IMG/VR virus record: IMGVR_UViG_3300021255_000031
From: a virus
Lineage: Duplodnaviria; Heunggongvirae; Uroviricota; Caudoviricetes
Length of the DNA stretch: 64,000 bases
Direction: 5' to 3' (one strand)
The first letter of the stretch is position 1. The number at the start of each line of letters is the position of its first letter. Shown here piece by piece: positions 1-46,000 of this stretch. The notes beneath the pieces were generated by a model. It worked only from the letters and a program-made list of their open reading frames with translations. It was not told the origin of the DNA and did not search any database. Made by a program: the position numbers and the translations under genes.

Positions 1-363
1 AAGATAAAATGCCATATCTTTTTCAAAATTTTTTTCAAAGTCAGCAAGTGCATTGAAATTACATTGATGCGGTGCATTATTATATCGAAAAGCTAAACGA
101 TGCCGCCATGCTTCTTTATCGTGCGCGGGTACGAATACTTCAAAAGGGATATGTAAATCTCTTAACGCATTGATAACACATTGATGCGCCGAAATAAATA
201 CGGCTTTATTTGTGGTTAGCTCTAACTTGTGCGCGACTGCTATATAATTATATTCCCATCTATCAACTTTGGGAAAGTTAGAACTATCTAAATCAATAGT
301 TGTGTCGGGATGCGCTTTGCAATAAGTGGATTTTCCGCAACCTTGATAACCGCAATAAATCAT
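1..363 (-). CDS. P-loop NTPase/kinase-like protein (C-terminal part runs off window start)
   Basis: Translation from ATG at 363 gives MIYCGYQGCGKST... (Walker A GxxGxGKST); AAAGGAG SD 7 nt upstream; consensus promoter 392-419. Confidence 0.6.
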   Translation of the reverse strand, partial: MIYCGYQGCGKSTYCKAHPDTTIDLDSSNFPKVDRWEYNYIAVAHKLELTTNKAVFISAHQCVINALRDLHIPFEVFVPAHDKEAWRHRLAFRYNNAPHQCNFNALADFEKNFEKDMAFYL

Positions 364-18690: not shown

Positions 18691-18746
18691 ATAATCGGTC
18701 AGAGTATGAAAATACTCACTCCAAAATCACTATGGAGGTTTCCAAA

Positions 18747-20036
18747 ATGAAAAAACCCTATACACTTGACTACTCAATTGAACGAGATACTGACCGCCTC
18801 AAGGCAGTCGAAGATATATTAGATAAACTAGATAAAAATCCCTCCCCCGCCGAATTAGAACAAATGGGTTCTTATATACTATATGGCAAAGACGAAAATG
18901 GCAAAAACGCCTACCAACGCGGAGAAATGATAAGAGATGCCCGCTATAATTCTTATAAAACCAAAGAAGATAAAAATGTATCACTTGATGCAATTTTAGA
19001 AAATCCACTATCTGACCAGCAGCAATTTCGTGAGATGGGCACAAGAGACCCATACCTACTTCCACGTCGTGTCCCGCGCCGCCCCAAATACGATAAAAAA
19101 ACAAATACAATAATTGATGACGGGGACGGTGATATTCCAGGAATGCAAGAATTATGGGAGTGCATTGACCGTAACGAGCACTGGATAGCCGTTCTTGAAG
19201 GCAAGATACCGGCGCAGCCCGAAGACACACTATTTGATAATCCCTATCGTCTATATAAACTAAAACATTCACTAATTGATTTGCGGCGGCACCAATATTA
19301 TTTATTAGATGCCTACAAACCTTGTATCCACTTCCTCGCGGCCGACCACCCCAAACGCCAATACATAGATTGGAACAGCGACTCCTTCTACTGGATTTCG
19401 CGTGAAGAGTGGGAAAGGCGCGTTAATAGCACTTTTTTCCCTGTTTCAAAAAATATTGAAGATTATGAAGTGAGAAATGAAGGAAAAGAAGTAAAGTGGG
19501 TGGTGCGCCAGCACACCTTCAATTGGGAAGACCCAAATCATATTTATGCATTAATTTGTAACTATCAAAGTTTATATAATCTTTTATGGGACAAATTAGG
19601 CACGGACGGTCATACTTTACTTATGGATTTTCAACGCTACCGCCAATTAACAAATTTTTCTGAATTACGCAACTTTATCTTACAAATGAAATTGGAACAA
19701 TATTCACAAGCTGAGATTAAATTTGCCGTTCAAAAAAAATATGGATTAAAATTTGGCATTAGTCATTTATATACTGTTATAAGTAAAGAAATCCCAGAGG
19801 CCATCGCGCAAACGGTAATTAAAGATAGAATGTTGAGGCAGACCCCCAAAACCCAATGTCAAAAATGCCGTGATTGCGGCCGTTGGCTTCCAAAAAATAA
19901 TTACTTTTATGTCACTAATAATAATCGCGCAAGTGGATTTTCCGCTCGTTGTAAAGAATGCGAGCGACAGGCGCGTATTGCAAAAGGAGAACAAGGGCAA
20001 TATGACAGAAGAAAAAAAGAAACGCACGTGCATTAG
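18747..20036 (+). CDS. hypothetical protein with C-terminal CxxC...CxxC zinc ribbon
   Basis: start MKKPYT after GGAGG SD; consensus promoter 18662-18690 upstream. Confidence 0.6.
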   Translation: MKKPYTLDYSIERDTDRLKAVEDILDKLDKNPSPAELEQMGSYILYGKDENGKNAYQRGEMIRDARYNSYKTKEDKNVSLDAILENPLSDQQQFREMGTRDPYLLPRRVPRRPKYDKKTNTIIDDGDGDIPGMQELWECIDRNEHWIAVLEGKIPAQPEDTLFDNPYRLYKLKHSLIDLRRHQYYLLDAYKPCIHFLAADHPKRQYIDWNSDSFYWISREEWERRVNSTFFPVSKNIEDYEVRNEGKEVKWVVRQHTFNWEDPNHIYALICNYQSLYNLLWDKLGTDGHTLLMDFQRYRQLTNFSELRNFILQMKLEQYSQAEIKFAVQKKYGLKFGISHLYTVISKEIPEAIAQTVIKDRMLRQTPKTQCQKCRDCGRWLPKNNYFYVTNNNRASGFSARCKECERQARIAKGEQGQYDRRKKETHVH

Positions 20037-20934
20037 GTGCAAAAAGGAAAAAACGGAAGATAATTTCCAATATACGCCTTCACAATTTTTCCCATCGCAT
20101 CGTTGTTACATCTGCACCTCATGCTTGGAAATAATGGTGCCACAAGACAATTTAGGCGAGGTTGATAGATTGTGCCGTTGGCTCGACGTGCCTTTTGATT
20201 TAAATAAATGGACGCAACTTTATGCTATACATAAAGACCATACTTTAACCGCATATTTTAATACATTATTAGACGAACATTATCAATCACTTCAATGGGC
20301 TGACGAAAATGAAAGATGGCGTCTCGCGCGCGATGAAGGAACCATTGATGAAGAAATTGATACATTAAATAGCGCGAAATTGCGTCGATTAAAAAAAGAA
20401 TGGTCGCCAGTTTATACGACCGAAGAATTACTTTTTCTCGATGATTATTATAATCAAATTTTGGCTACTCAAAATGTTTCTACGCCCATACTCAAGTCGC
20501 GGGCGCGCGACCTATGCGAACTTACCTTGCGCGCGAAAAAAGGCATACGCGACGGTTTGGATGTAAAAAAAGATATGGACGCGATAGAGAATATTATCAA
20601 GACCTGTAACTTCAATGCCTCTAATGCTAAAAACGCAGCAGACTTTGAGTCCGTTGGAGAATTAATGGTTTATTATGGTAAGAAGGGATGGCATCCAAAA
20701 TGGCATAATGAACCGCAAGATTCAATTGATTTTATGATGGAAAATATTCAGAACTATCTTAAACGAATGGTAATAAATGAAGGCAACTTTGCAGAACAGG
20801 TAGAAGATGCGCGGCAACGCTATAATATGACAGAACGACTAGAGGAAATAGAAAATGAAGCAGTTGAATTTGACGATACAGCTGGAATAGAATATGAAGG
20901 TGAAAAAGAATTAGAGGAGGATTTAAATGAATGA
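20002..20934 (+). CDS. putative terminase small subunit / DNA-binding protein with N-terminal zinc ribbon
   Basis: Sits directly upstream of and overlaps terL ATPase ORF; assignment by synteny only. Confidence 0.4.
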   Translation: MTEEKKKRTCIRCKKEKTEDNFQYTPSQFFPSHRCYICTSCLEIMVPQDNLGEVDRLCRWLDVPFDLNKWTQLYAIHKDHTLTAYFNTLLDEHYQSLQWADENERWRLARDEGTIDEEIDTLNSAKLRRLKKEWSPVYTTEELLFLDDYYNQILATQNVSTPILKSRARDLCELTLRAKKGIRDGLDVKKDMDAIENIIKTCNFNASNAKNAADFESVGELMVYYGKKGWHPKWHNEPQDSIDFMMENIQNYLKRMVINEGNFAEQVEDARQRYNMTERLEEIENEAVEFDDTAGIEYEGEKELEEDLNE

Positions 20935-21844
20935 AGAAAGAGCGATGGTTTTAAGAGACGGCATTCCTATTGAAAAGGGTGTAGTCTTAACTAAAGAATT
21001 TTTAGATTCTAATCAAGAGCTATTTACTAGTTATTTAAATTATTGGATATTAAATCCAGACCTATTCTTAGACGAAATTCAAGATTCAATTGACGCGAAA
21101 AATTTTCATTTACTTCCATTTCAACGCATAATGTTACGCGCTTGCATGCGCTATCGTTATATCTATCTCACTGCTACGCGTGCAACCTCAAAATCTTTTA
21201 CTGCCTATTTAGCGGCAGCAGTGCGCGCGGTTCTAATACCTAATTCTACTATAATGATTGTATCAGACCAAAAAGGCACAGTTATTAAAATCGCGCAAGC
21301 AAAGTTTGAAGAAATATTCCAGCATTGGCCTTTACTACGAAAAGAACTCGCTACCAGGGAAGATGATGGCAAAACTGGTTTAAAAAGTAGTAACAATTAT
21401 TATGATTTATATTTTAAAAATGGCAGTCACATTTCTGTTATCTCAAAAGATACCAGCCGTGGTTTGCGCGCGAACTATGCAATTTTAGAAGAGTGCGCCC
21501 TCATTGATGAAACGCCTTTCAATGAAGTAATTTGGCCGCAAATGAACGTTAAGCGGCGCGAAGTAGATGGGTCATTAAATCCAGATGAGCCCTCTAGTCC
21601 TCAAATTTTCATTACAACCGCGGCGGAACGCACCGTATTTATGTACTCTAAATTAATTGAGTGCGCGATAAATGCTGTTTTGCGCCCACGGGAAGCTTTT
21701 GTCTGGGGTATGTCTTATGAAGTGCCACTACATTACGGCCTTATTGATAAAGCAACTATATTAGACCAAAGATATTCCAATACTGTTAGCGAAGACTCAT
21801 TTGCACGTAGATTTTTGCGTGAATACATAGGGATATGTATTTAA
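20927..21844 (+). CDS. terminase large subunit, ATPase domain (separate ORF or exon 1)
   Basis: Deviant Walker A LTATRATSKSF, Walker B ILEECALIDE, terminase-like order; ends before HEG-like insertion. Confidence 0.7.
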   Translation: MNEERAMVLRDGIPIEKGVVLTKEFLDSNQELFTSYLNYWILNPDLFLDEIQDSIDAKNFHLLPFQRIMLRACMRYRYIYLTATRATSKSFTAYLAAAVRAVLIPNSTIMIVSDQKGTVIKIAQAKFEEIFQHWPLLRKELATREDDGKTGLKSSNNYYDLYFKNGSHISVISKDTSRGLRANYAILEECALIDETPFNEVIWPQMNVKRREVDGSLNPDEPSSPQIFITTAAERTVFMYSKLIECAINAVLRPREAFVWGMSYEVPLHYGLIDKATILDQRYSNTVSEDSFARRFLREYIGICI

Positions 21845-22008
21845 GTAGATATTTAAAAGCTGGAAACTCCTAAAGCCAAAATACTACAACTTATTACTCC
21901 AATATAAGTGAATGTGCGAAAGCGGAAAAAAGTTTTTGGATGATTGCATGGCGAGAGCCTAAACAATTACAAATGGACAATCAGCGACCAATTATGGAGG
22001 AATTAATT

Positions 22009-23019
22009 ATGGGAAGAAAATTGTTATATACAAAAGAAACCTATTATACTCATTTAATGGAATTATTACCTGATTCTAATTTTACTTTAGATGTTTATAC
22101 TGCTACTGAGAAACCTTGCGAAATTACTTGTAATATTTGTGGAAGTCATTATGTATTTACTCGTGCAGATAGAATTGCTCGTAGGGCGAAGCGAGGAAAT
22201 ACAAATGTATGCAAAAAATGCGAAAATAATTCATTTACAGAAAAACAACATGAAGCTCAAAAGAAAGCTGAATATATCTTACAAAAAAAAGAAACTATTC
22301 AATTAGTAGATGGATTAAAATCATGGGCTTCACAAGATGAAGCACGATGGAAATGCATTAAATGTAATCATACTTTTTTAAGAGCTCCAGTTGTGATGTT
22401 TGCATTAGGAATTACTAATTGTCCTTGGTGTGAATCTCGACCTGGTACTTATACAGAAGAAATGATTAAAGAACAAATTTACCGTTTATGGGGCGATGAA
22501 TATACTTTATTACAATCGGAAAATTTAAAAAAGAATAAAAATGGTTCTCGTAGAATTTTAGTTCAACATAATGCTTGTGGATTTAAATATGAAACTAGTC
22601 AATATAATTTTTGTCATGGACAAGGCTGCCCCAGATGTAAAAAAAGCCATGGCGAAAGAAAAATAATGAATTATTTGCAACAACATAATTTTGCATTTCA
22701 GCAGCAATACACAATTAATACCGGTAAGCATTTATTAAAATTAGATTTTTATTTAGAGGAGCAAGGAAAAAAATATGCCATAGAATATAATGGTATTCAA
22801 CATTATCAACCTATAGAATGGTTTGGTGGAAATGCTGGCTTTCAAGCTCAACAAGAACGAGATTTAGATAAAATAGAATATTGTAAAAATAATGATATAA
22901 ATTTAATTATAATTCCATATAATGATGAAAGTTTAATTAATTCAGAACAATTGGCTCAACGACTAAGTGGTCAAGTGACCGAAGAATATCCATCTAGAAC
23001 AGATGAAAATATAGTCTAA
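22009..23019 (+). CDS. homing-endonuclease-like protein: three CxxC..CxxC zinc fingers + C-terminal Vsr/DUF559-like restriction-endonuclease-fold domain
   Basis: start MGRKLL after GGAGG SD; CNICGSH..CKKCEN, CIKCNH..CPWCES, CHGQGCPRCKK; LDFYLEEQGKKYAIEYNGIQHY resembles DUF559/Vsr motif; lies between the two TerL domains. Confidence 0.6.
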   Translation: MGRKLLYTKETYYTHLMELLPDSNFTLDVYTATEKPCEITCNICGSHYVFTRADRIARRAKRGNTNVCKKCENNSFTEKQHEAQKKAEYILQKKETIQLVDGLKSWASQDEARWKCIKCNHTFLRAPVVMFALGITNCPWCESRPGTYTEEMIKEQIYRLWGDEYTLLQSENLKKNKNGSRRILVQHNACGFKYETSQYNFCHGQGCPRCKKSHGERKIMNYLQQHNFAFQQQYTINTGKHLLKLDFYLEEQGKKYAIEYNGIQHYQPIEWFGGNAGFQAQQERDLDKIEYCKNNDINLIIIPYNDESLINSEQLAQRLSGQVTEEYPSRTDENIV

Positions 23020-23079
23020 TCTTATATGAAAATATAAGCCATATGGTATAAAATTTCACGAATTTTATATAAATAAATT

Positions 23080-23988
23080 TTGGAAAGTCTCAGTATCTGG
23101 TCAGGCAACAATAAAGAAGCTTGGCTAGACTCGCGTCGTTTAAATAAATGCAGAAAATTATTAAAATGTGAAAGGAAGGCACAAGAAAATTTAGTTAATC
23201 AAAATACCTACTATATAATGAGCTGTGATATTGGTCGTTATAATGCCAATACTGCAATTATGGTTGCTAAAGTAATTCCTCAAGCCGACCGTCATCATAA
23301 AAATATAATTTATACAGAAGTTATTCATGGCGCAAACTATATCGTCGAACAGGCTCCACGAATAAAGAAATTAATACAGTTGTATAAACCACGCGAGGTG
23401 GTTATTGACGGAAACGGCCCCGGCATTGGACTTTTAGATGCTATGGTATTACCTTCTGTTGATCCAAAGACAGGAGAACAATTCCCGGCTTATTATGTAT
23501 TTAATAATGACCATCATTTACCGCCGCAATTAAAAAAAGAGACAACCGAGCCCAAGCCAGCTTTTAACGCCATTATTTATGATATTAAAGCGGGCGCAAA
23601 TAATGATGATGAAATTCATTCTAGCTTCTTTTCTCAAATAAATAACGGCTCCGTATCTTTTTTGGCAAATGAACGAATAGTAAAAGATAAACTATTATCT
23701 ACGAAAAAGGGACAAAGAATGACAAACTATGATCGTAGGGTATATTTAATGCCATATGAGATGACATCTCGACTTATGGATGAATTAAATAACCTGCGCC
23801 TGAAACCAACTGGCGTACAAAATCAATTTAAAGTTGAGAGAATTTCTCGTTCCTATGAGAAAGATAGATTTTCAGCGTTAGAGTATCTACTTTATCGAAC
23901 AAAATATTATGAAGATAAGGATATACAGGCACATAAAAAACGGAACCTAAAAAATTATGGTTTTTTTAGCCCAAAGAAAAGGGGGTGA
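23080..23988 (+). CDS. terminase large subunit, nuclease domain (separate ORF or exon 2)
   Basis: RNase H-like motifs YYIMSCDIGR and VVIDGNGPGIG typical of TerL nuclease domain. Confidence 0.7.
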   Translation: MESLSIWSGNNKEAWLDSRRLNKCRKLLKCERKAQENLVNQNTYYIMSCDIGRYNANTAIMVAKVIPQADRHHKNIIYTEVIHGANYIVEQAPRIKKLIQLYKPREVVIDGNGPGIGLLDAMVLPSVDPKTGEQFPAYYVFNNDHHLPPQLKKETTEPKPAFNAIIYDIKAGANNDDEIHSSFFSQINNGSVSFLANERIVKDKLLSTKKGQRMTNYDRRVYLMPYEMTSRLMDELNNLRLKPTGVQNQFKVERISRSYEKDRFSALEYLLYRTKYYEDKDIQAHKKRNLKNYGFFSPKKRG

Positions 23989-25526
23989 GTTATTTGTCAC
24001 AAAAACATGATTTTAATTCATTTAAAATAAAATTGAAAGAGCGGGCGCCGCTTAATACGCGTGCATATTATGATCGATGGAATTATCGTTCTAATGAGCG
24101 CGTAAAAGATGATTTTAGTTTAGAAGAAATTTTAAATATAATCCGACAAGGCGATTTGGAGTCTATACGGCAATTATCAAGATATTATTATAGAACTAAT
24201 AGTAGTTATAAAAATAATATAGATTTTTTGGCGCATCTACCATTGTATGATACTGTAATAATTCCCGTCTTTGAAGAAGGAAAAGGTAGCGAGTCTAAAA
24301 TTATTAAAGCCTTCTATACAGCATGTAAATTTGTAGATATGTTAGATTGTCCAAATGTATTGGCGCATATAACAACTGAATGGCTATTAGTGGGTGTTTA
24401 TAACGGAATCCTGCGTGAAACCGATAATAAAATTGTTATACAAGATTTGCCTTTGGAATATTGCCGTTCTCGTTTTAAGGATTTTAATAATTTAAATATT
24501 TTAGAGTTTGATTTACATTATTTTGAACATTTTAAAGATGAACAACTAAGAAAAGAAGTTTTATCAACCTTTCCTAAGGTCGTACAACAAGGCTGGCGCG
24601 AATGGAAAAATGAAACTAATAAAGATTGTTGGGTTATTATAAGTCCGGAGGACGGGGGCATTAGTTTTAGTTTTGCGACGGACCAAATGCCATTATTAAT
24701 TGCTAGTATTCCTGAATTAAAGAAATTAGATGATGCCACTAAACGGGAAGAAACTCGTGATGAAAATGAATTATATAAGTTATTAATTCAAAAAATGCCA
24801 ATAGACAGCAATGGAGAATTAGTTTTCCAATTAGAAGAAGTAGCCGATATACATGAATCTGTGGCAGAAATGCTTAAAGATGAAGATACTGTTGAAGTTT
24901 TAACTACTTTTGGCGATACAACACTTGAAAATTTACAAGATTCTTCCGCCGCATCACAATCCACTGATAGATTAGAAAAATATCGTAAAAATGTTTGGGA
25001 CGCCCTTGGCAGAGGGGAGGTATTATTTAACGCAACTAATAGCTCTTCACTTGCCTATAGTATCAAAAAAGATGAAACGCTGATGCTAAGTTATTTAAAT
25101 GTTTATGAAACATGGATTAAGTTTTTATTAAACAAACGCTTTGCAAAAAAGACTTTAACTTTTGATTTTGAAATTTTATCAACCACAGTCTTTAATAGAA
25201 CAGATATGCAACAAGCATATTTTAGAGGAGCCCAATATGGATACTCAAAAATGTTTGCGGGCGTAGCTATGGGTATTAAACAAATGAGTCAGTTGAGTCT
25301 TATGAATTTTGAAAATAATTTCTTAAAAATGGCAGAAAATATGATACCATTGCAATCTTCTTATACTACTTCTGGAAAAACTGTAACAGAAGAATCGAAA
25401 AAAACTGGAGAAAATACCACAACTTCTCAGACTACAACGGACATTACTAATGAAGGCGGGAGACCTGCACTTCCAGATGAGCAAAAATCTGAAAAAACTC
25501 AATCAAATATAGATTCTCAAGGATAA
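23985..25526 (+). CDS. putative portal protein
   Basis: 513 aa, immediately after terminase; acidic/Thr-rich C-terminus; synteny-based call. Confidence 0.5.
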   Translation: MSYLSQKHDFNSFKIKLKERAPLNTRAYYDRWNYRSNERVKDDFSLEEILNIIRQGDLESIRQLSRYYYRTNSSYKNNIDFLAHLPLYDTVIIPVFEEGKGSESKIIKAFYTACKFVDMLDCPNVLAHITTEWLLVGVYNGILRETDNKIVIQDLPLEYCRSRFKDFNNLNILEFDLHYFEHFKDEQLRKEVLSTFPKVVQQGWREWKNETNKDCWVIISPEDGGISFSFATDQMPLLIASIPELKKLDDATKREETRDENELYKLLIQKMPIDSNGELVFQLEEVADIHESVAEMLKDEDTVEVLTTFGDTTLENLQDSSAASQSTDRLEKYRKNVWDALGRGEVLFNATNSSSLAYSIKKDETLMLSYLNVYETWIKFLLNKRFAKKTLTFDFEILSTTVFNRTDMQQAYFRGAQYGYSKMFAGVAMGIKQMSQLSLMNFENNFLKMAENMIPLQSSYTTSGKTVTEESKKTGENTTTSQTTTDITNEGGRPALPDEQKSEKTQSNIDSQG

Positions 25527-34047: not shown

Positions 34048-37000
34048 ATGGCTGAGGGTATAGTAATAGATGTTAGCGCGCGAGTTACTGGGTATGAGCA
34101 ATCATTGGCTCAATTAAAAGCAAGTTTTGACCATTTGAATCCAGGAGCAAGCATTTCAAAAAGTATCACTCGTGCATTGCAAATTGCAGAGAGCAAGGTA
34201 AAATCTTTAGGAAATAATTTAACTCCTAAGATTACAAGTAATTCACAATTAGATAGATTTACAGAAAAAATAAATAGCACAAGCGATGCAATTCAACACG
34301 TTGCCAGCTTGCTTGGACAAATTAGTTCTGATGATTTGGATTTGTCTTCTTTTTCTGGTGAATTCGATGAATTAACTCAAAAAATACGTGAATTAGAAGC
34401 GTTATTAAATAAAAATATTACAGAACAATTTAGAGAGAAAATTACGGCTGCAATAAGTGGAATTAAAATTGATGATAATGCCACACCTGCGGCTATCTTT
34501 CAACAATTAGAGGAAGCGTCTAAAAAGGCTGCAAAAGCAGTTGTTGCCGCTGAGCGTGAAATGGCTGAAGCAGAGAAACAATTAGCTACGCGGCAACGAA
34601 GACTTACAGAGCTTCAAAGTAATGCGGCAAATAATCCAACGGCATTAAATAATCAGGTGCATAAGATTGCCGATGATTATGTAGAAGCTATGAGTTCTTT
34701 GCGTGAGCAAATGACAAATGGATTAAATACATTATTAGGGCCGGATAGTGCGGACGCTTCAAAATTATTGGAGTCATTTTTTGGTGGTTTGAATCCAGAG
34801 GATGGCGCGGATGTAGCTAATCGTATTTATCAATTACGACAGTCTATTACTACCGCAATGGGTAAATCTGCGGTTAAACCAACTGAAATATATCAAGCAT
34901 TATTTGGTAAGAATTTAAGCCCACAGGCAATGAGTGAATATTTACGAGCTCACATATTGCCAAAGAATTTAGACGATGTAAAAGCTCAATTGATGGCAAC
35001 TTTGCAATCAATATCTACACATCTTACCTCTACTCAAATTGGGCAAGTTTCTGGGTTGATTTCTAGTAATGATATTGATGGTGCGCTGCAAACAACGTTA
35101 GACCTTATTACTAAAGCTTATGAAACAATACAGGCTAAAATACTAAAAAAGCGCCAAGAAGTTGCGGAAGCTTTAAATAAAAGAGACAACGCTCAGCAAG
35201 AAGTAAATAATGCTACCGCTCAATCACAACAAAGTGTTGATAATGAGCAAATAGCACGCGAACAATTAGCACAAGTAATGCAGCAGAATCAAGCATTACA
35301 AGAGCAGAATGATTTATTAAAGCAGGAATTAGCTAGACAAGTAGAAGATAAGACTGTAAATATAAAAAATAGAGCAGCAGATACAAAAGAAGAAGCCGAG
35401 AATCTTAAACTTGCAAGTGAGGAAGCGGGACAATATAATCAACAATTAGATAAAATAGATAATAGAAGGCAACTAGTTAATCATATTGAGGGCATCGCGC
35501 AGCGTTGGTTTTCTATTTATGCAGCGGTGCGAATGACAGGAAACGCGATTCGTTCAGTCGTTTCTACATTGGAAGAGCTGGATAAAACAATTACCAACAT
35601 CGCCATTGTTACTGATATGACACAAGATGATTTGTGGAGCCAGATGAGCACCTATACCGCGATGGCAAAGGAATATGCCGTTTCGATTTCTGGTGTATAT
35701 GAAGTTTCACAACTTTTCTATCAACAGGGCTTACAAACTCGTGATGTTATGACCTTAACTGGCGAGACATTAAAAATGGCTCGTATTGCAGGGTTGGATT
35801 ATGCAAAAGCTACCGACTTTATGACTAACGCTCTTCGTTCATTTAAAATGGAGAACGAGGAAGCTGGCCGAGTTACAGATGTTTATTCTTCTTTGGCAGC
35901 CAGCGCAGCAATTAGCGTTTCTGAGTTAGCAAATGCTATGAGTAAAACGGCTTCTTCTGCATACGCGGTAGGTTCTAGTATTGAAGCTACTTCTGCTATG
36001 ATTACAGTTATGGTAGAAGCTACACGTGAATCCGCTGAAAACATCGGTTCAGCTATGAAGTCTATCATTTCTCGTTACGGTGAAATGACTAGTGATCCAT
36101 TAAAGGTTGTTGATAGCGAAGGCGAAGAAATGAGCCTGAACCGTGTTGATAAAGCCTTGCAGACCGTTGGAATTACATTACAAGATGCTAATGGACAGTT
36201 CCGTAACTTCGATGAAGTAATTATGGAATTGGCTGAAAAATGGAATACTATTGATAAAAATACTCAGCGCTATATTGCCACCATCATGGCTGGTAACAGA
36301 CAACAGTCTCGTTTCTTAGCCCTAGTATCTTCTTATGACCGCTTAAGAGAATTAACAGCCACCGCAATGGAAAGTGAGGGTGCGGCTACTTCTCAGTTTG
36401 AAAAATCATTAGATGGTATTGAAGCTAAAACGCAACAGCTACAAACTAGTTTGCAAAATTTATATACTAGTGCTGGACTGCAAGACCTTTATAGCTTTAT
36501 TTTAACTATTGGCAGCAATGTATTAGATTTTTATAATGATATTGCGGCTGCTTTTGGAAGTGGATTTAAAGGGCTACTTGCTGCTCTGGTTACTTTTAGC
36601 GCACAATTTTATAATGCAGCTAGAATTGTAATGCGTGTAGTAGATTTAGTTAAGACCCACTTTATTGGTGCTAATAAACAAGCTACAGCTAGTTCTGCAG
36701 TGGAAAGTAAAAATCGTGCAAATACGGAGTTATATACTGCTGAAGAATTGAATGCAAAAATAATTGAAGTATGGCGTAAGGCGGAAGAAGAGAAAACAAA
36801 AATTACAACTGAAGAAGCTGAGCGCCGTGCGAAAATTTTATTGAATGCAGAGAAAAACAATTCGCAACAAAAAGGCAGTGGGTTGAAAAACTGGTTGAAA
36901 AAGAACGGAAGTATGATTGGTTCTACCATTGCCGCAGGCTCTAGCATCGTCGGGGGAATGCTAACCGACTCAAAATGGAGTGCTGGTGTGAGTGGAGCAG

Positions 37001-40000
37001 GAGGTCTAATTGGTGCAGTAATCCAAGGTGCATCTGGAGACATTGCAGGGGCCATAATGACTGCTATCAGTAGTATTGGGCCATTAGTAAGCTTAATAAC
37101 CCAATGGGCTACTATAACCGATGAATTAGCGGAAGCTCAAGAAAAATATAACAAATCATTAGAGGAAGCAGCTAAAAAACGGACAGAAGCAACAAAAATT
37201 AATAATGAAGCAGAAGCTTTAAAGAAATTAAGTGAAAGACTCGAAGAAGCTAAAGAAAGACAATATGATAGCGCTGAAGCAAAACAAGAATATTTGTCAG
37301 TAATGAAAGAAATAGCAGAGCAATATCCGTCTTTAGTAGCTTATTATGATAGTGAAAACAATGCAATTGTAGAAAATACGAAAGCATTAGATACTTATAT
37401 CAAAAAACGCAAGCAAGAAGCAGCGATAGCAGAAAGAGAAGCTATTATTGCTGAGGCCGGTGCAGATAGTAGATATGGTGTAACTATTACACCAGCGAAA
37501 CAGGTATACGAAGGAAAGACCAGCGGTCGTGATGTTAGCAGACTTCATAATCAAGAGAATGATATAATCCAGGGGAAATTTTCTACCGTTGGCGCTGCAA
37601 TGAATGCTGCTATTTCAGAATATTTGTATTATAATACAGGTTTTCTTGCTGATGTTGAAACATCTAATCTTTTAGGATTTGATTATAATAATGATACAAA
37701 TAAAACGCTGTTTAAAGAAAAAGCAAAAAATGCTACAAAGGAAAAAACTGACCTTAATATCAATAAAGCAGTTCAAGTTGCATTAGATGTTTTAGTAAGT
37801 AGATTAGAAGCTGCTCAGAAAGCAGGAACCTCTTTAGAGGAAGTCTATACCAAATGGGAAAAAGAGTGGTTAGCAACGATAGATGGGTATAATAGAGAAA
37901 ACAGTTTATTCTATGAGATTTTTCAATATGCCCAGCAATATATTACTCATGCAGATACTTTTAAAGCCTCTCGTGAAGATTTAGTTCATCGAGCCGCCGT
38001 TTCTTTTGTAAAATCATTAGACTTAGAAGGCTATACTGATTTACAAATACAGCATTTAGTAGGACAATTTGAAAGTAGTTTTAAAGAAACTAATCCAGAT
38101 GTGCTAAATATTTCAACTTCTCAAGAAGATTTTCAAAAACGGTTAAATACTTTTTGGGGACAACAAATTGAGTCTAGTGGAAATTACACTCTCAATGCCC
38201 TTGAATATTATGGGACAATTGATAAAAAGACAATCGCACAAATAGACAAAGTATTTAACAATCTTGCAAAATATAGTAGAAATAGTCTTGAAGCTTTGAT
38301 AGATTCTATTGGAATTACAGGGCCGGCTGCCAAAGATTTATTAAAAGAATGGGATACAGAAAATGGTCTTGCTGTAGAGAATGCTAAAAAGGCTTATAGT
38401 AATCTTCTTGGAAGTAATCAAGAATTGAGTCAAGAGCAAGCAGATTTTATAGACTCATTGGCACCTACCTATTTATCAACCTATATAGAACAATTGCGAG
38501 CCTTTTCAAGTAATGGTAGTGGTGGAACTCCTACCTCTCTTAACATATCACCTATTCAAAAGATATGGGAAAAAGCTCAAGGGAATGATGAAGCACTTCA
38601 AGTCTTACAAAAAAGCGATTTAACTACTATTACTGGTATTTATGATGCGGCGAAGGAAATGGAAAAGTTAGGCAATTCTGACTTAGCCACATCTATAACG
38701 AAACTTTCAGAATATATACAAATAAATCTTAATACAGAACTTCAAACATATGTTGATACATTACAGGGGAGTTTCTCTGATTTAGAAGCAGCATTAAAGA
38801 ATGCTTCTTCTGGTATGGATGTTGATACTATGCTTGCTATGGCGGATAGGCTTGGAAAGAGTATTAGCGATTTTTCATTTAAAGACGGAAAATATTATTT
38901 TAATGATATTAATGCTATTTATGATTCATACTCTAAAGCTTCAGACGCTCTAGAAAAACAATTAAGTGAAATACAGTTGGTTGAAGATACTGATAACTAT
39001 GAAGAATTATCAGCAGAAGCCAATGAATTAAAAAATAGAATAAAAGAATTAAGAACCTATACAGATGATTATCTTAAAAAAACCTTCTTGCTTCAAACAG
39101 GACAAATAGATAAATTTTTAGAAGAGCTCAATGTTGGAGCAGAGGTTAAGCAAGAAATAGCTCATGGCGATTATACTCATATTCCTCCTGAGTATATTTC
39201 TGCTGTGACATCCGCCGCTGGAAAAACATATAATGAAATTTATGATATTTTAATTGGTCAAATTAATGGCTCTTCTAAACAAACTACAATAAAAGCAACA
39301 GAAGTAAATTTAGATTTATTAAAGAGTTTAGGTCTAGCTGGTAATGGAGTAGTCGCAGGAGACGAACTACTTATTAATTGGGCTAATGCTACAGCAGACC
39401 AAATTAATTCTTTACGCCAAATCATTTTAGAAGATGGTGATATAGGAGACGATGAACGCAATAACTTATTGCGTTCAATTTATGACAGTAAATTTAAAAA
39501 TAATCGTACAGAAGCTTTATTGCAAGTTATTAATTCTTATACTAACTTTGACCGAAGCGTTGCGGAAGCTTTTGCACTTTCTATCGGTGAGACAGTTGAG
39601 GGGCTTGAAAAGAAAGGTATTATAGCTCTTAACCAAATTACTGGTGCCTATTCTATGACATTCGATGTCTTACAACAACAAATTGAAGAGGCTAAGGCCA
39701 ATGGAGCAAGTGATACAGAATTAGCTAAATTAAAAGATGCTATTTCTACTTTATATAGCGGCATAGCTAATAATATTGTAAAAGCACTAGAGGGCTCCTT
39801 AAGTTCTACAGACGCTCAAGAGTTATCTAAATCAATCGAAGATATTTTTGGTCTAAAACTTGATTTTTCTAGCACAGCTAAAGGTCTTGGTCTTTCTAAT
39901 GAAATTGCTGCAATATTGTATCAACGCTTAATGGCAATTGATGGGATTGCCGCACGCCTAGTTTTTGATGCTTTATACGATTCTTTGACGAAATCAGAAG

Positions 40001-43000
40001 CCACTTGTCAAAATATTTCTACTACTATGCGGCATTTGGCGGAAGTTCAAAAAGAAATTAACAACCTACAAAAACAAAATAATGATGCTGATAAAAAACG
40101 CGTACAATCTCTAAAAGACCAGTATAAGCTTTTATCTCAGATTGCTTATAAGCAATCTATGGATTCTAATTCATTTAAATTTTTAGATAGGTCATTACCA
40201 ACTGGTTATGAGAGCCCTATCAATTATTTACAATCTGCTGTTAAATCATTTGATATTATTAATCAAGCTAGTGAAGATGGCCACATTGCATTAACAGATT
40301 TCTATAACATTGTTATGGAAATGAGTAATGTTGCCGCGATTACGGGTCAGACTATTACTGTATTCGGGCAAACTATTACAGGCGATTTAGTACAAACTTC
40401 TGAACTCATTCAAAAAGGTTTTAAAGTATGGTCTGATATTGATGGCACAGCTTCTATTGGAGCAGAGGCAGCCGCGAGTATCGGATTAAACTTTGAAGCT
40501 GGTGTTGAAGAAGGACAGGGTAGTATTGAATCTGGTATTAAGGCATTTGCAAAACAGCAAATTGAAATGCTTGATGCAATGATTAATGCTTTGGAAGGAG
40601 TCGCGGCTTTAGAAGCGCTAGAGACTGGAACTGGAGATAAGAGTTTAGGCTTAGGAGAGGTTCTTGGTAATTTTTATGAGACTGATGAAAAAGGAAATTC
40701 TACAGGTAACATATCCCAGAAGGCTCAAGACTGGATAAATTCTTTTAAAACAGTTATTGATGGTAATGAAAAGTTAAAGGCATTCGTAGATAAAATTAAA
40801 GTTAGTGATGAAGATCTTATTACATATTTGCAGGATGAAAAAGTTACTGCCGAGCAAAAGAAAAATGTCCTTTCACGCTTATATGAACTAATGAAGAGCA
40901 ACGACTGGGGTGACGACCTTTCACAAGTTGCAGATAAGTGGGCAGAACAAGGATTTAATTTTGATGCTAAATCTGGATTCTTGAAATTCTCGGAGCCAAT
41001 AGAAACGGATGTTCCTCTTACATTAAAAGTTGTACTTGAGGGTATTGATGCCGAAGGATTGAAAGGTTTTAGTGATTTGTTAAAGAAATTACTACAAGTT
41101 AATCCAAATGGTGATATTGACCTTACTGGTACAATGGGTAAGAATCTTGCTTATACACTAAAACTCGCTCGTACTAAAAATGGAGATAAAGTCACTCTTA
41201 CAATTGATGGTAAGGAGCCATATGAAAGTGCGCTTTTTGATGCAACAAATAGTGGTGCATTAACAGCGCAAGTTACAGATGTTATCAATCGAGCAGCGAA
41301 AGATTTAAAGATTTTTAATATTGCTGATACTAATTTTACAGTTACTGGAGTAGGCACAAATACTTATATAGCAACTGAAGATGGCGATACGCTAGAGTAT
41401 CATAAAACTATCAATGGCAGCAATCCGCCTATTATTACTATTTCTGGCACTTCTATAAAAGGTGGATATATTTCAATTGCGTCTGCAATAGAAACTTATA
41501 AAAAAGAAAAACAAAAACAAGCTGCAATTAATCAAGACACATTAAATACTCAAACTAACGAAACCTTTACTGGCATCGAATCTGGTTCTGGTTTAGGATA
41601 TGAGATTCAATTTAAGGATAACGGCGCCACCGCTGCAATTAAAATTGGCGGTAAAGAGATTGCTACCTGGTCTGATAATGATGGTACTGGCTTAACTTTA
41701 AATAGTGCGATAGAACGTGCATTTGCTTTATATCAACAGCAATATGGCAGTAATTCTGTAGAGATGCCATCTTTACCCTCTGGTAATAAAGAAATTATTC
41801 CAGAAGATAAAGGAATTACGCTTGGATATAAAATTACTCCCAATGAGAATGGCGGCTATAGCGTAACTTTTGGCGAGGGTAGCAAGTGGGGAACCCCTGC
41901 CGCATGGAATGGCACAAAAGAAGGATTACAAAGTGTTCTGACGCAAGCGGCTATGCATTATTATACAGAGCACGGTTCCGGTTCCATTCCTGAAGGATTT
42001 GACCCGTTAGGACAATCTATAAGTGGAACAGTGGTATCTGCGGAAGATGATGGTAATACTTTACAATATTATTTAAGTTTTGATAAGAGTATTGATAGCG
42101 GACGTATTACTATCGGAAGCGGTTCTACATATGTTTCTATGGGATGGTCTGGAAATCATGCCGAAGGAATACAAACAGCTTTACGTATTTATCATAATAG
42201 AATAGCATCAGCTGCGAAAGAGCCTTCTTTTGATAGTGATAATATTGAAATATATGATAATGATAATGGTATAGTTTATTCTTTCGCGGCTAATGAAAAA
42301 GACGGTCAATTTTATCTGCCGGGTGGAACGGCTCCTGTTAGTCAAGCAGAATTTATAGCTGGAATTCAAACTTGGGTTGCTACAAATCGTGGTACAATAG
42401 TCGAAGAGCTAAAGGATACAGGTTTAACTCAGGTTGAAGTGAGTAGCGGACCAGAAGGAACCAAGGTTAATGCCGTTGGTGACTATTGGGCTGCGGATGG
42501 CACCGGTATAGGATATTATTTAAGTCTTAAGACTAAAGAAAATGGCAATGTTAATGGTTATTCGACCGGGACAATTAAAAATGCAGTTGATGCTACTAAG
42601 AACTGGTTAAAATCTCTTGAAGAAAAGTATGGTAGCGGTGAAGCTATCGCGGACGCACTTGGTGCAGGTAAATTAGTAATTAATCCAGAAACTAATCAAG
42701 TTACTATGGAAGAAATTCCAATAGCCAATGGTTATAAGCTAGATTATAATTTACAGATTACCACCACAGGTGATGCGACAGCAACTCAAGAGGCTTTAGA
42801 AGAAAAAATAGCTACGGTAAAACGATTACAGGCAGCATATAAAGATTTAGAAGCTTTAAAAGTTGAACAAAATGCTACTGGAATAGAGGGCAGTGCCATT
42901 TTTCCTTCTAAATATTTTTCCTTGGATTTGGGTCTTATCGTTAAAATCACTGATAGTGGAGTTAAGGTAAGCGGTAATGTAAGCGGTTTAGCATCTACTT

Positions 43001-46000
43001 ATGATAGTATCGATGACTTTATGAATGCCCTTATCGATTTTTACGAGCAGAAATTGGGGCAGACGGTCGATATTAATAATACTACTCAAGTTGAGAATGA
43101 TTTATCCACTGGTGGGAATGAAACGACTAATGCAACTCCTTACACGCATGGTGGAACTGCAACTAATGTTGTTTATCCTGATGACCAAAGTGATGCCTTA
43201 TATAATCAATATCCTGATAAAAATGTTGAATCTGAGTTTGAGGAAGAAATTTTAGATGAAGTAACTCAAATTGCTGAAGAAAAAACTAATCCGACTACCG
43301 AAGGCACACAAGCACCTGATACTGAAAATGCTCTTACCGATGAAGAGATTATAGCGGATTTAAATACTAAAGTGGGTGATGCTTTAAAACTTTGGGCAGA
43401 CAAGAGCGAAGAAGCTGATTTAGCTAAATCAGAGGGAAGCGATGATGCTGACCATCTTGAAGAAGAAGCACAGGCATTACACCAATTAGTATTAACTCTT
43501 ATGGATTCTCAAGACATTTTAAATGCCGGACAGTCACAAGAGCAGCAACAAACGCAAGATTTATCTCAAGACCAAATAAAATATTTATATGATAATCAAG
43601 TTTCTAACGATAGTATAGATACAATTATTGGACAATTGGAAGCTAGCAAAAGTGATGATGAAACAACAAATGCTCAAATACAACAAACTATAGACTGGTT
43701 GAGTGCGTTAAAAGAAGGCAATTCTAATCAGCTAGAAAAAATGAATCAAATCGCTGCGAAGACACGCTTGCCATATACCCCGACTGAATTAAAAGCAGGC
43801 TTAGACGGAATTAGTATTCATGGTGATTTGTTTGCAGGCGGCTGGCAGTTAGTTCGCCCTGATGGTGCAGGTGGCTATACACATGAGCCTGGTGAGGGCT
43901 CAGCAAAAGGTAATGCTCAAGCCAAAGGTACTCTCATGGGTGAGCTTGGCCCAGAGCTTTATGTTACTGGCGGGCATTATTATATTGCTGGTCAAAATGG
44001 TGCAGAGTTTGTTGATTTGCCAGATGATGCAATTGTATTCAATCATTTGCAGACTCAACGTCTAATGTCTAATGGCTCTACCGGTCGCGGACGTGCAATA
44101 ACTAGTGAGAAGAAAGCTACATCTTATGCAACCGGTAATGTGGCTATGGCTTCTGCTTCTGAAACCGTTGCTAAATTGCGTGAGCTACGAGCTCTTTGGG
44201 AATCTCTATTAAATCAAGATTTCAAGAGTCTTACTCAAGCCGCGGGTGGTGGCGGTGGCGGCGGTTCTGAAGAAGCTAAAAAGTTTTTGTATGACCTAGA
44301 CCGCTGGTATAATTTACTACGACAGATTGAAAAGGTTGAAGAACAGATTAATTACCAGCAAGCATTACGGCAAAATATGCAATCTGGCTATAAGTATGTG
44401 CGTAGCCTAGAATATGAACTTTCATTATTGGAAAAAGAAGCATCCAATTATGAGATGCTGGCTAAATTGCAAGAAAGTTATTATCAAGCTCGTAAGGCTG
44501 ACCAAGAACGGTCTATTTATAGTTATTTCTTCAATTATGATGATGAAGGCTTGATGCAGTATCGAGACGAAGGCTTCCATCTTGTCGCAGATTTAAATCG
44601 TACTGATGAAACCGGACAGGCTGTTTATACTTCTGAACAACAAATAGCTGCTATTACAAATGCATTAAAGGCTGCTGGCTATGATGCAGATTTAATCTCT
44701 AATACGCTTTACTATGATGAAGCTGGAGAAAAGCTAACAGATTCGGCAGATATAATTCAAAATTTCTATGACAAATTTGATGGCTGGATAGAAGAGATGG
44801 ATGCAGAGTACGATAGCTTTAATGAATATCGTACCAAGACTCAAGAAGCTCTTACAAAACAAAATGAAATTCTTGAAGAATATAGAGAATTGCAAATCGG
44901 TTTAGAGAAACAATTACTTGAAGCCATTGAAAATAGAGAACAAAAAATTATTGATACATTACAAGATGAAATGGATGCATTGAAAGATGCTTCTGACAAG
45001 TATCTTACTGGATTGACGGATGCCTTAAATAAAGAGCAACAAATGTATCAACAAAATGAAAAAGATACTGAGTTATTGCGTTTGCAACGTCAATTGGCTA
45101 TTCTACAAAGGTCTGGCGGTTCTGCTAGTGAAATTAAATCTTTACAAGACCAGATAAATAGTAGGATGCAAGATAGATATTTTGAAGCTCAGCAAACCGA
45201 AATTGATGCAATAAAAGAAGCTTCTGATAAGCAATTAGAAATGATGCAAAATCAAATCGATATACTTACTGAAACTTTAGAGTATCAAAAAGAAAACGGA
45301 TTGCTTTGGGCAGAAGTATCTGAAAAGATGAATACTTGGAAGCCTGAAGAACTTGCTAGTTTTGTGCAAGAAAATAGTCCAGAGTTCGCGGCCGCAAGCC
45401 TAGAAGAACAGACTAAAACAATGCAAGAATCGATTAAAGAGTTTGAAAAATGGTATGAATATATTCACAATTATCGTGCCTTTAATCAATTCTACGATCA
45501 AATTGATACCGACACTTTGAAAAATGAGTATGGTATTAATACTGATGATGAAACTATGCTAAAGCGCGCCCGAGCGACCGCAAAGACCGCATATCAAAAA
45601 GAGTATCAACGGCAAATCGATGAGGAAGGAGCAGATAGCGACACCGCACATAGATTGGCAGAAGAAGCTGCATTAAGGGCGTTAAGAGAAGATTACAGTT
45701 TGCATCCTGCTATGGGGCCCGGACGCGGTGGAATTGATACTAGTGGTGCGATTGGTAGTGGTAGTGGAACTGGTGGATTAAGTACATTTAAAGAAGTCCA
45801 AGCCAAATGGAATGAAACAAAATATAAGTTTAATAACGCAGTAAGTAATTATAGTAAGACGCCATTAGGTTTCCGGAATTGGTATGATGCTAATAATAAA
45901 TGGGGTATTACTTGGGATAATTTGCAAGAAGCGAGACATAAATCAGAGTTTGGCGCGAATGTTTATGCAACAGCATTTGGAGAGTGGCAAGCATATACAA

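Follow-up and report, generated by a model that had tools for sequence, protein, structure and literature searches.

Phage terminase genes have been known since the 1990s to harbour group I introns (phage LL-H), and the T4 td intron, of the phage IA type, carries the open reading frame (ORF) of I-TevI looped out of P6 with its own translation signals and is mobile by double-strand-break repair. Here we describe the gene for the large terminase subunit (terL) in a stretch of 64,000 nucleotides (nt), hereafter the window, from the virus record IMGVR_UViG_3300021255_000031 of IMG/VR (Caudoviricetes). This gene is very probably interrupted by a mobile group I intron with a homing-endonuclease gene, for which we infer splicing and homing. 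The likeness to td/I-TevI lies in an endonuclease ORF that sits in the P6 loop of a phage group I intron, here perhaps also of the IA type, and has its own translation signals; in contrast, I-TevI is a GIY-YIG enzyme and its host gene encodes thymidylate synthase.

The closest described introns are the group I introns in terL of Bacillus phages of the Bastillevirinae, which a screen detected in 5 of 52 terL genes, with two or three introns in some (PMC11878797). Splicing of a terL intron has been demonstrated for phage SIOphi, and the phrog_559 proteins, labelled 'HNH endonuclease' and bearing a VSR-endonuclease signature, were found exclusively in terL introns (PMC11878797). Our locus shares with them the large terminase as host, a group I ribozyme, apparently IA-like, split by an endonuclease-bearing loop, a phrog_559 protein and, in related phages, the presence of several introns in one terL. 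It differs in that TerL is here of the SPbeta/YonF-like kind, encoded on uncultured contigs of ~167 kb, and in that splicing, shown by experiment in SIOphi, is here predicted from sequence. Intron endonucleases with three to five CapR/DUF4379/DUF723-like repeats and a C-terminal EDxHD/Vsr-like domain occur in phage introns of groups I and II and form a large unrecognised outgroup of EDxHD/Vsr, described mainly for group II introns hosted in RNA polymerase genes (PMC12350094). In this described architecture our endonuclease matches them, with three zinc repeats of ~60 amino acids (aa) and a nuclease domain of ~100 aa. The sequence-only reading of this DNA had called the endonuclease class uncommon, which was overstated: the protein belongs to phrog_559, has more than 100 database homologues, and its architecture appears in both studies (PMC11878797, PMC12350094). 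Both the architecture and the phrog_559 endonucleases of terL group I introns were published in 2025, and nothing here is conceptually new.

The prototype of the EDxHD family, I-Bth0305I (PDB 3R3P; PMC3239194), is more distant. It binds DNA through NUMOD/helix-turn-helix elements, whereas our protein has three treble-clef zinc fingers; its catalytic motif is spaced D-12-N-5-H-9-D as against D-15-N-4-H-20-D; and its ORF lies in P5 of an intron in recA, ours in P6 of an intron in terL. The two are alike in that the I-Bth0305I target contains a GCGCG pseudo-palindrome, as does the terL insertion site.

The sequence-only reading had described the ATPase and nuclease domains of TerL as separate ORFs split by about 1.2 kb. 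The ORFs are as it described them (Table 1), with the exon limits corrected to 21808 and 23083; in the upstream ORF, the final 11 codons (RFLREYIGICI, then a stop) are intron read-through. In Geobacillus virus E3 and Enterococcus phage H1 the terminase genes are contiguous, and both halves align with them end to end (tblastn against their annotated TerL, E = 1e-43 to 2e-46); in the protein alignment the halves meet at ...SFAR / ESLSIWSG..., neither overlapping nor leaving a gap. Proteins related to the joined product match phrog_2, 9, 38, 5909 and 5989 ('terminase large subunit'). Judged by these alignments, the two halves are one gene, encoding a large terminase of the SPbeta/YonF type. Removal of 21809-23082, which joins 20927-21808 to 23083-23985, yields a TerL of 595 aa that reads NTVSEDSFAR/ESLSIWSGNN across the junction and places the intron between codons R294 and E295, where the ATPase part borders on the nuclease part. 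The predicted spliced junction is ...TTTGCACGT/GAAAGTCTC..., and the predicted ligated-exon sequence is GCACGTGAAAGTCTC.

The protein is only ~30-36% identical to TerLs of Bacillus, Geobacillus and Enterococcus phages, and megablast found no close relative among GenBank phages. Single-sequence searches of Pfam, NCBIfam and PDB were uninformative for TerL, with no Pfam or PDB match, and likewise for the endonuclease; a TerL profile gave weak matches to TerL nucleases in PDB (E = 0.3-1.3), and the AlphaFold model of an uninterrupted relative had a predicted local distance difference test score (pLDDT) of 43. Two PHROG families of 'unknown function', phrog_15503 and phrog_24618, represent this TerL type's N-terminal and C-terminal half, respectively, and each of 10 full-length relatives matched both, with E-values as low as 1e-131; that there are two families probably stems from the annotation of intron-split terL as separate proteins. 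A distant relative of this TerL (34% identity) occurs in Phage Phass-1 (L002, OQ749652.1; 'Caudoviricetes code 15 clade'), where it is annotated as several short hypothetical proteins. The terL region of the window shows no sign of stop-codon recoding, and the terL read-through ends at a TAA.

Comparison with related terL genes that lack the insert, which the sequence-only reading had proposed, fixed the insertion point at 21808/23083. We fetched 30 IMG/VR relatives (70-81% identity), and about two dozen of them have an uninterrupted terL of the same length, with the junction motif, where extracted, reading NTVSE[DE]SFARESLSIWSGNS. All 120 full-length homologues listed in a large protein collection read F[ASL]RE..S.W.G at the junction, with E295 invariant among them. 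The 90%-identity cluster that holds both terL halves also contains two proteins of 595 aa each (P0245 and P0246) that are ~99% identical to the predicted spliced TerL and have an identical junction. Their DNA (contigs L167 and L168) is ~94% identical in nucleotides across terL and its flanks; its alignment to the window stops at 21804-21808 and restarts at 23089-23092. Over 1788 nt, the spliced terL and the two intron-less alleles run colinear with 0 indels. Near-identical phages thus occur with and without the 1274-nt insert. The intron-less sequence around the insertion site reads TTTGCTCGC/GAATCATTG in both contigs, and the target sequence in L167 is GATTCCTTTGCTCGCGAATCATTGAGTATT.

Synonymous differences between intron-plus and near-identical intron-less alleles are clustered within ~15 nt of the insertion site. 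Near it, 10 of 30 positions differ, compared with 5.8% overall for L167 (window 21795-21830 against L167:1140-1170 and L168:2370-2400), the intron-plus allele reading GCACGT/GAAAGTCTC and the intron-less one GCTCGC/GAATCATTG. Exon 2 begins with GAA in 7/7 intron-plus alleles and with GAAAGT in 6/7, and with GAATC in 12 of the 13 intron-less junctions extracted (GAAAGC in L019). This cluster fits exon nucleotides co-inherited with the intron through guide pairing (P10 pairing, co-conversion); it also fits an intron-plus allele that has diverged from the endonuclease target (target immunity).

Table 1. Features of the interrupted terL locus in the window, and terL insertion sites in related phages (a slash separates the two strands of a helix)
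Feature	Position	Strand	Remarks
TerL N-terminal/ATPase ORF	20927..21844	+	305 aa
terL exon 1	20927..21808	+	codons 1-294, ATPase part; ends TCA TTT GCA CGT (S F A R); from homology to contiguous TerL genes
Exon 1 read-through into intron	21809..21844	+	in frame, 11 codons RFLREYIGICI plus TAA
Group I intron	21809..23082	+	1274 nt; starts AGAUUUUU, ends ...AAAUUUUG, terminal G 23082
P1 hairpin	21804..21821	+	exon CACGU (21804-21808) with internal guide GCGUG (21817-21821), 5 base pairs (bp)
P10, possible	21809-21816/23083-23090	+	8 bp; P1 loop AGAUUUUU with exon 2 GAAAGUCU
Ribozyme core, 5' half	21822..21995	+	weak RF00028 match in P4-P5, helix table, covariation
P2	21822-29/21834-41	+	GGGA loop
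P3 (5' strand/P3')	21848-53/22985-90	+	complements across introns: GAUAUU/AAUAUC, AGCAUC/GAUGCU, UCUAAC/GUUAGA, ACCAAU/AUUGGU, CCUAGU/ACUAGG
P4	21859-63/21981-85	+	
P5	21868-70/21975-77	+	
P5 extension helices	21876-81/21934-39, 21889-94/21904-09	+	
P5 extension helix	21915-17/21922-24	+	GAAA loop
P5 extension helix	21950-52/21957-59	+	GAGA loop
P6 (5' strand/P6')	21988-93/22949-54	+	complements across introns: CCAAUU/AAUUGG, CCAAUA/UAUUGG, CCAAAG/CUUUGG, CUUAAU/AUUAAG
Cys-rich ORF	21940..23019	+	359 aa as called; contains LDFYLEEQGKKYAIEYNGIQHY
Ribosome-binding site GGAGG	21996..22000	+	directly after P6 5' strand, 8 nt before ATG 22009
Homing-endonuclease gene	22009..23019	+	in P6 loop; 336 aa; phrog_559, DUF4379, homologues, model, residue conservation
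Ribozyme core, 3' half	22946..23082	+	RF00028 match, helix table, covariation
J6/7 and P7 5' strand GACUA	22961-65	+	
Extra hairpin, P7.1-like	22969-72/22977-80	+	
P8	22991-95/23001-05	+	followed by J8/7
P7' UAGUC	23012-16	+	P7 3' strand
P9	23021-27/23032-38	+	GAAA loop
P9.2-like	23047-55/23061-69	+	
TerL C-terminal/nuclease ORF	23080..23988	+	302 aa, TTG start
terL exon 2	23083..23988	+	codons 295-595 plus stop, nuclease part; starts GAA AGT CTC (E S L)
Portal gene	from 23985	+	directly downstream of terL; phrog_2739, 4.8e-73
terL insertion, L020/L024	codons 46/48		
terL insertion, L161	codons about 186-216		
terL insertion, L028 and L110	codons 261/262		
terL insertion, L159 and L163	codon about 343		
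terL insertion, L030 and L157	codons 406/408		

The intron has a G+C content of 29.6%, against 36.7% in the exons, and its two ends pair as expected of a group I ribozyme core split by an ORF in P6. U21808 forms a wobble with G21817 at the end of P1, which defines the 5' splice site, and G23082, directly before the GAAAGU of exon 2, provides the 3'-terminal guanosine. The J8/7-P7' segment reads AUAUAGUC. The sequence-only reading had proposed TAGTC as a P7 element just after the stop codon of the endonuclease ORF. TAGTC is indeed the 3' strand of P7, at a position 6 nt away: it lies at 23012-23016 and overlaps the last codons before the TAA stop (23017-23019). One covarying hairpin (22969-80) separates P7 from P3', and two do so in the related introns of L020 and L028; this extra hairpin may correspond to the P7.1/P7.2 hairpins that mark subgroup IA next to P7/P3'. 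Together with the extended P5 and the arrangement from P9 to P9.2, it suggests an IA-like, phage-type fold.

Rfam group I models, which had been suggested as a check, found nothing in longer scans and gave matches with the separate intron halves, the 5' one weakly. RF00028 matched the 3' half alone with 21.4 bits (E = 0.0012 in a search of 211 nt), covering J6/7-P7 (UCAACGACUA) and P8', J8/7, P7' and P9 (GAUGAAAAUAUAGUCUAAUCU-UAUAU-GAAA-AUAUA-AG), with UCAACGACUA...AUAUAGUCUAAUC in agreement with the Rfam consensus; the P4-P5 part of the 5' half reached 12.3 bits (E = 0.87). Long scans miss the intron because the 1-kb ORF splits the core. In another phage contig (L110), an ORF-less intron of 295 nt sits at exactly the same codon boundary and matches RF00028 with 70.8 bits (E = 4e-18; gathering score 50), and its helices are assigned in the same way by the Rfam alignment. 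In relatives, introns inserted elsewhere in terL matched RF00028 at E = 6.6e-4 to 6e-3.

Homologous introns at the same site were found in six contigs (L029, L110, L157, L159, L161 and L163) whose TerLs are 40-85% identical to ours, and at other terL sites in L020 (codon 46/48) and L028 (261/262). We aligned eight ORF-deleted introns (alignment A8) under a hand-built structure from P1 to P10, with P7 and P10 as pseudoknots. Standard pairs filled 88.7% of the paired cells, compared with 72.0% when the letters of the 3' strands were shuffled (0/500 shuffles reached 88.7%) and 32-42% when pairing partners were slid; as the structure was derived from this phage's own sequence, this measure is biased towards it. 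Free of that bias are the counts of compensatory changes, seen in 55 of the 89 pairs, and the independent Rfam alignment of L110. Each of the six same-site introns has its own P3 sequence, complementary in every case, P5a stays complementary in all eight and P6 in every correctly aligned sequence, and both P3 and P6 pair across the 1-kb ORF. P2, P5a, P9 and P9.2 covary like P3 and P6, and no change is seen in P4 and P7. At the 5' splice site, the U-G wobble is present in 7/7 A8 sequences with a residue there (the L020 row is gapped), and the internal guide follows the exon sequence at three terL sites (CUGU/GCAG in L020 and GGGGU/GCCCC in L028). Conservation of the fold with compensatory changes points to selection on RNA structure.

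This conservation weighs against the proposal that terL is expressed as two polypeptides, also raised by the sequence-only reading, in which a free-standing endonuclease gene or a dead intron would separate halves of 305 aa and 302 aa that are translated on their own into a two-piece enzyme. Both halves are intact ORFs, separate PHROG families exist for each (phrog_15503 and phrog_24618), annotators often see two genes, and 5/7 same-site introns lack the canonical 3'-terminal G, so that splicing could be impaired in some lineages. The complete ribozyme fold is nevertheless kept with compensatory changes, and the ORF-less intron is retained at the same site with its full Rfam score. TTG 23080 is not a real start codon: it is preceded by an AT-rich run without a Shine-Dalgarno sequence or an ATG, and no ribosome-binding site stands before it. 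The 11-residue read-through tail of the N-terminal ORF is not conserved, precise excision restores the invariant FARE motif, and intron-split annotations account for there being two PHROG families. A two-piece terminase is therefore unsupported and very improbable, and the evidence strongly favours the intron.

The sequence-only reading had left the choice between a group I and a group II intron. The group I half of that proposal held, through the junction, P1, the covariation and the Rfam score of L110. The same endonuclease architecture does occur in some phage group II introns (PMC12350094), but a group II intron or another retro-element carrying the endonuclease has hardly any probability left: no group II model matched in Rfam scans of the window or the intron halves, the insert has no reverse transcriptase and no domain V/VI, and it shows group I elements instead (the P1 U-G wobble, the P3/P7 pseudoknot, J8/7-P7', the GAAA loop of P9 and the terminal G); the match of the same-site homologue L110 to a group I covariance model refutes it. 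An intein or an assembly artefact (chimera), for which nothing speaks beyond an endonuclease inside a gene, can practically be dismissed, as the endonuclease ORF is not fused in frame, with stops at 21842-44 and 23074-76 bracketing the insert, and as the arrangement recurs in independent contigs from other samples at 99.6% identity and in others at 40-85% TerL identity.

We identified the product of the intron ORF as a zinc-finger/Vsr-like endonuclease of phrog_559 (8.5e-49), with weaker matches to phrog_9084 'homing endonuclease' and phrog_7140 'intron encoded nuclease'. Its gene most likely starts at ATG 22009 and not at 21940, giving 336 aa and not 359 aa, because of the placement of the GGAGG motif and because the homologues (316-326 aa) begin at an equivalent Met; the same GGAG(G) placement is seen in homologous introns. 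The three zinc fingers noted by the sequence-only reading are present and make up the N-terminal 200 aa, where no NUMOD/helix-turn-helix was found. Two are CxxC...CxxC pairs (C41/C44...C68/C71 and C116/C119...C138/C141), and the third, read earlier as CxxC like the others, is HxxC...CxxC (H187/C190...C207/C210). The fingers are treble clefs like those of DUF4379/DUF723. Pfam DUF4379 falls just below threshold, homologues carry PF14311 and PF05265 (DUF4379/DUF723), and a profile of the protein matched DUF4379 proteins in PDB at E = 3e-5; a single-sequence PDB search gave no match.

The C-terminal domain (roughly aa 215-325) had been likened to Vsr/DUF559, and fold comparison bore this out: in the AlphaFold model (pLDDT 92) the catalytic domain has the Vsr-type PD-(D/E)xK fold. 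Across 57 homologues, D246, E259, H265 and D285 never vary, and N261 is kept in 51/57. No Pfam HNH match was found in the protein, and the 'HNH endonuclease' label of phrog_559 is a misnomer for a Vsr-type PD-(D/E)xK domain, as was also stated for the family (PMC11878797). The protein thus combines three repeats with a Vsr-like domain and is encoded in an intron. A homologue of this nuclease domain (32% identity over 112 aa) is encoded in Enterococcus phage H1 by H1_75 (L003:3228-3563), an ORF that stands free directly downstream of a terL without interruption and may be an intron-less homing endonuclease beside the same gene.

The last ~25 codons of the endonuclease overlap P6', J6/7, P7, P7.1, P3', P8 and P7'. 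A C-terminal peptide conserved in the family, LAQRL, is the translation of GGCUCAACGACUA and is encoded here (codons about 314-319, 22949-22965) by the P6'-J6/7-P7 segment UUGGCUCAACGACUA. Its conservation probably reflects a constraint on the RNA rather than on the protein. The last 8 residues are disordered in the AlphaFold model.

Several results weigh against a mobile, self-splicing intron with an EDxHD-type endonuclease. An Rfam E-value scan of 20500-24500 and a gathering-score scan of the whole window found no intron; the intron halves of this phage, at 12.3 and 21.4 bits, stay below the gathering score of 50 bits, and membership in RF00028 at that score rests on the ORF-less homologue L110. 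Metagenome contigs scanned for an exact match to the spliced junction yielded none. The endonuclease profile matched I-Bth0305I (3R3P) at a non-significant E = 0.29, and the catalytic residues would be equivalent to its D196/N208/H213/D222 by motif order only. Finally, 5/7 same-site introns have an A directly before exon 2 as defined by homology, and the splice-site rules of this intron lineage are incompletely understood.

A terminal G is a near-universal rule for group I introns. It is present before exon 2 in this phage and in L161, whereas L110, L029, L157 and L159 read ...AAAUA/GAAAGU and L163 reads ...GCA/GAAUAU (L110 on the - strand, about 3360-3040; L029:970-1040; L157:3500-3580; L159:3480-3560; L163:3490-3566). 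P1 with its U-G wobble and the G-binding P7 are unchanged in these five introns. They do not affect the intron of this phage, which follows canonical rules. With the 5' site set by the conserved U-G wobble and the junction by the invariant FAR/E of the 120 intron-less TerLs, the lineage could include members that splice without a 3'-terminal guanosine (L110, L029, L157, L159 and probably L163), which we consider improbable; if true, A-ending introns that splice accurately would be natural exceptions to the near-universal rule. A literature search for natural group I introns without a terminal G returned nothing relevant. Two other junctions were considered. Extending exon 1 to ...UUGCGUG ('model B', FAR-RFLR-ES) is in frame in four sequences and was rejected, being out of frame in L161, meeting a stop in L163 and having no U at -1. 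If both splice sites were shifted by +1 (FAR-K-S), every one of the seven introns would end in G; this junction needs A at -1 and E295K, at a residue invariant in the 120 homologues, and is unlikely; no FARKS terL was found in metagenome contigs, where three pattern matches were due to chance.

The anatomy, the junction, a ribozyme fold that is conserved and covaries, the endonuclease's fold class and the intron-plus/intron-minus polymorphism are established; on these we infer splicing and cleavage as follows. terL and the intron would be transcribed as one pre-mRNA in which the intron RNA folds as a group I ribozyme. An exogenous guanosine would attack after U21808, held in the P1 wobble, and the freed exon 1 would then attack after the terminal G23082, with P10 aligning exon 2. 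The ligated mRNA would encode the normal TerL of 595 aa, and unspliced RNA a truncated, ATPase-only product of 305 aa ending in RFLREYIGICI. The endonuclease would be translated from its own ribosome-binding site; its three treble-clef zinc fingers presumably recognise DNA, and intron-less terL is presumably cut by its Vsr/EDxHD-type PD-(D/E)xK domain in the vicinity of ...TTTGCNCGN/GAATC.... In co-infected cells, the intron would then spread through repair from the copy that carries it.

An independent IMG/VR contig (L027/L099) carries the same arrangement with 99.6% identity, and homologous arrangements are found in at least six other phage contigs. Within the clade, terL carries insertions at no fewer than six distinct sites, often two to four per gene (Table 1); RF00028 matched the inserts of L028 and L030, and the others were located by the points at which the TerL alignment breaks off. 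In L110, two or more introns lack an ORF, and there may be a third. The endonuclease genes in these terL loci are of three kinds, namely zinc-finger/Vsr-like, GIY-YIG (L161) and HNH_3 (L157). In a scan of viral contigs, the 5'-junction pattern turned up at known loci and as chance matches only.

Two overlapping ORFs lie upstream of terL (18732-20934). The first (434 aa) has weak PHROG matches to 'sigma factor' and endonuclease VII-like families and a Cys-rich C-terminus. The second (354 aa) matches phrog_3314, and Pfam YonG_N is present in the equivalent gene of relatives, consistent with a packaging module like that of SPbeta. The structural-gene block contains a single ORF of 4142 aa (34048-46476, + strand).

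Overall, the locus holds an ordinary but well-documented mobile group I intron in a phage terminase gene, here from an uncultured phage lineage. For annotation, it means that two 'hypothetical' ORFs, and with them phrog_15503 and phrog_24618, are halves of one terminase. The family of zinc-finger and Vsr-like endonucleases is biochemically uncharacterised, and its modular array of zinc fingers might prove of interest as a new DNA-targeting scaffold. In this uncultured SPbeta-like phage clade, terL is a hotspot for mobile group I introns, with at least six sites and three endonuclease families, and the coexistence of near-identical intron-plus and intron-minus alleles provides a natural system for homing and for intron-mediated competition between co-infecting phages.

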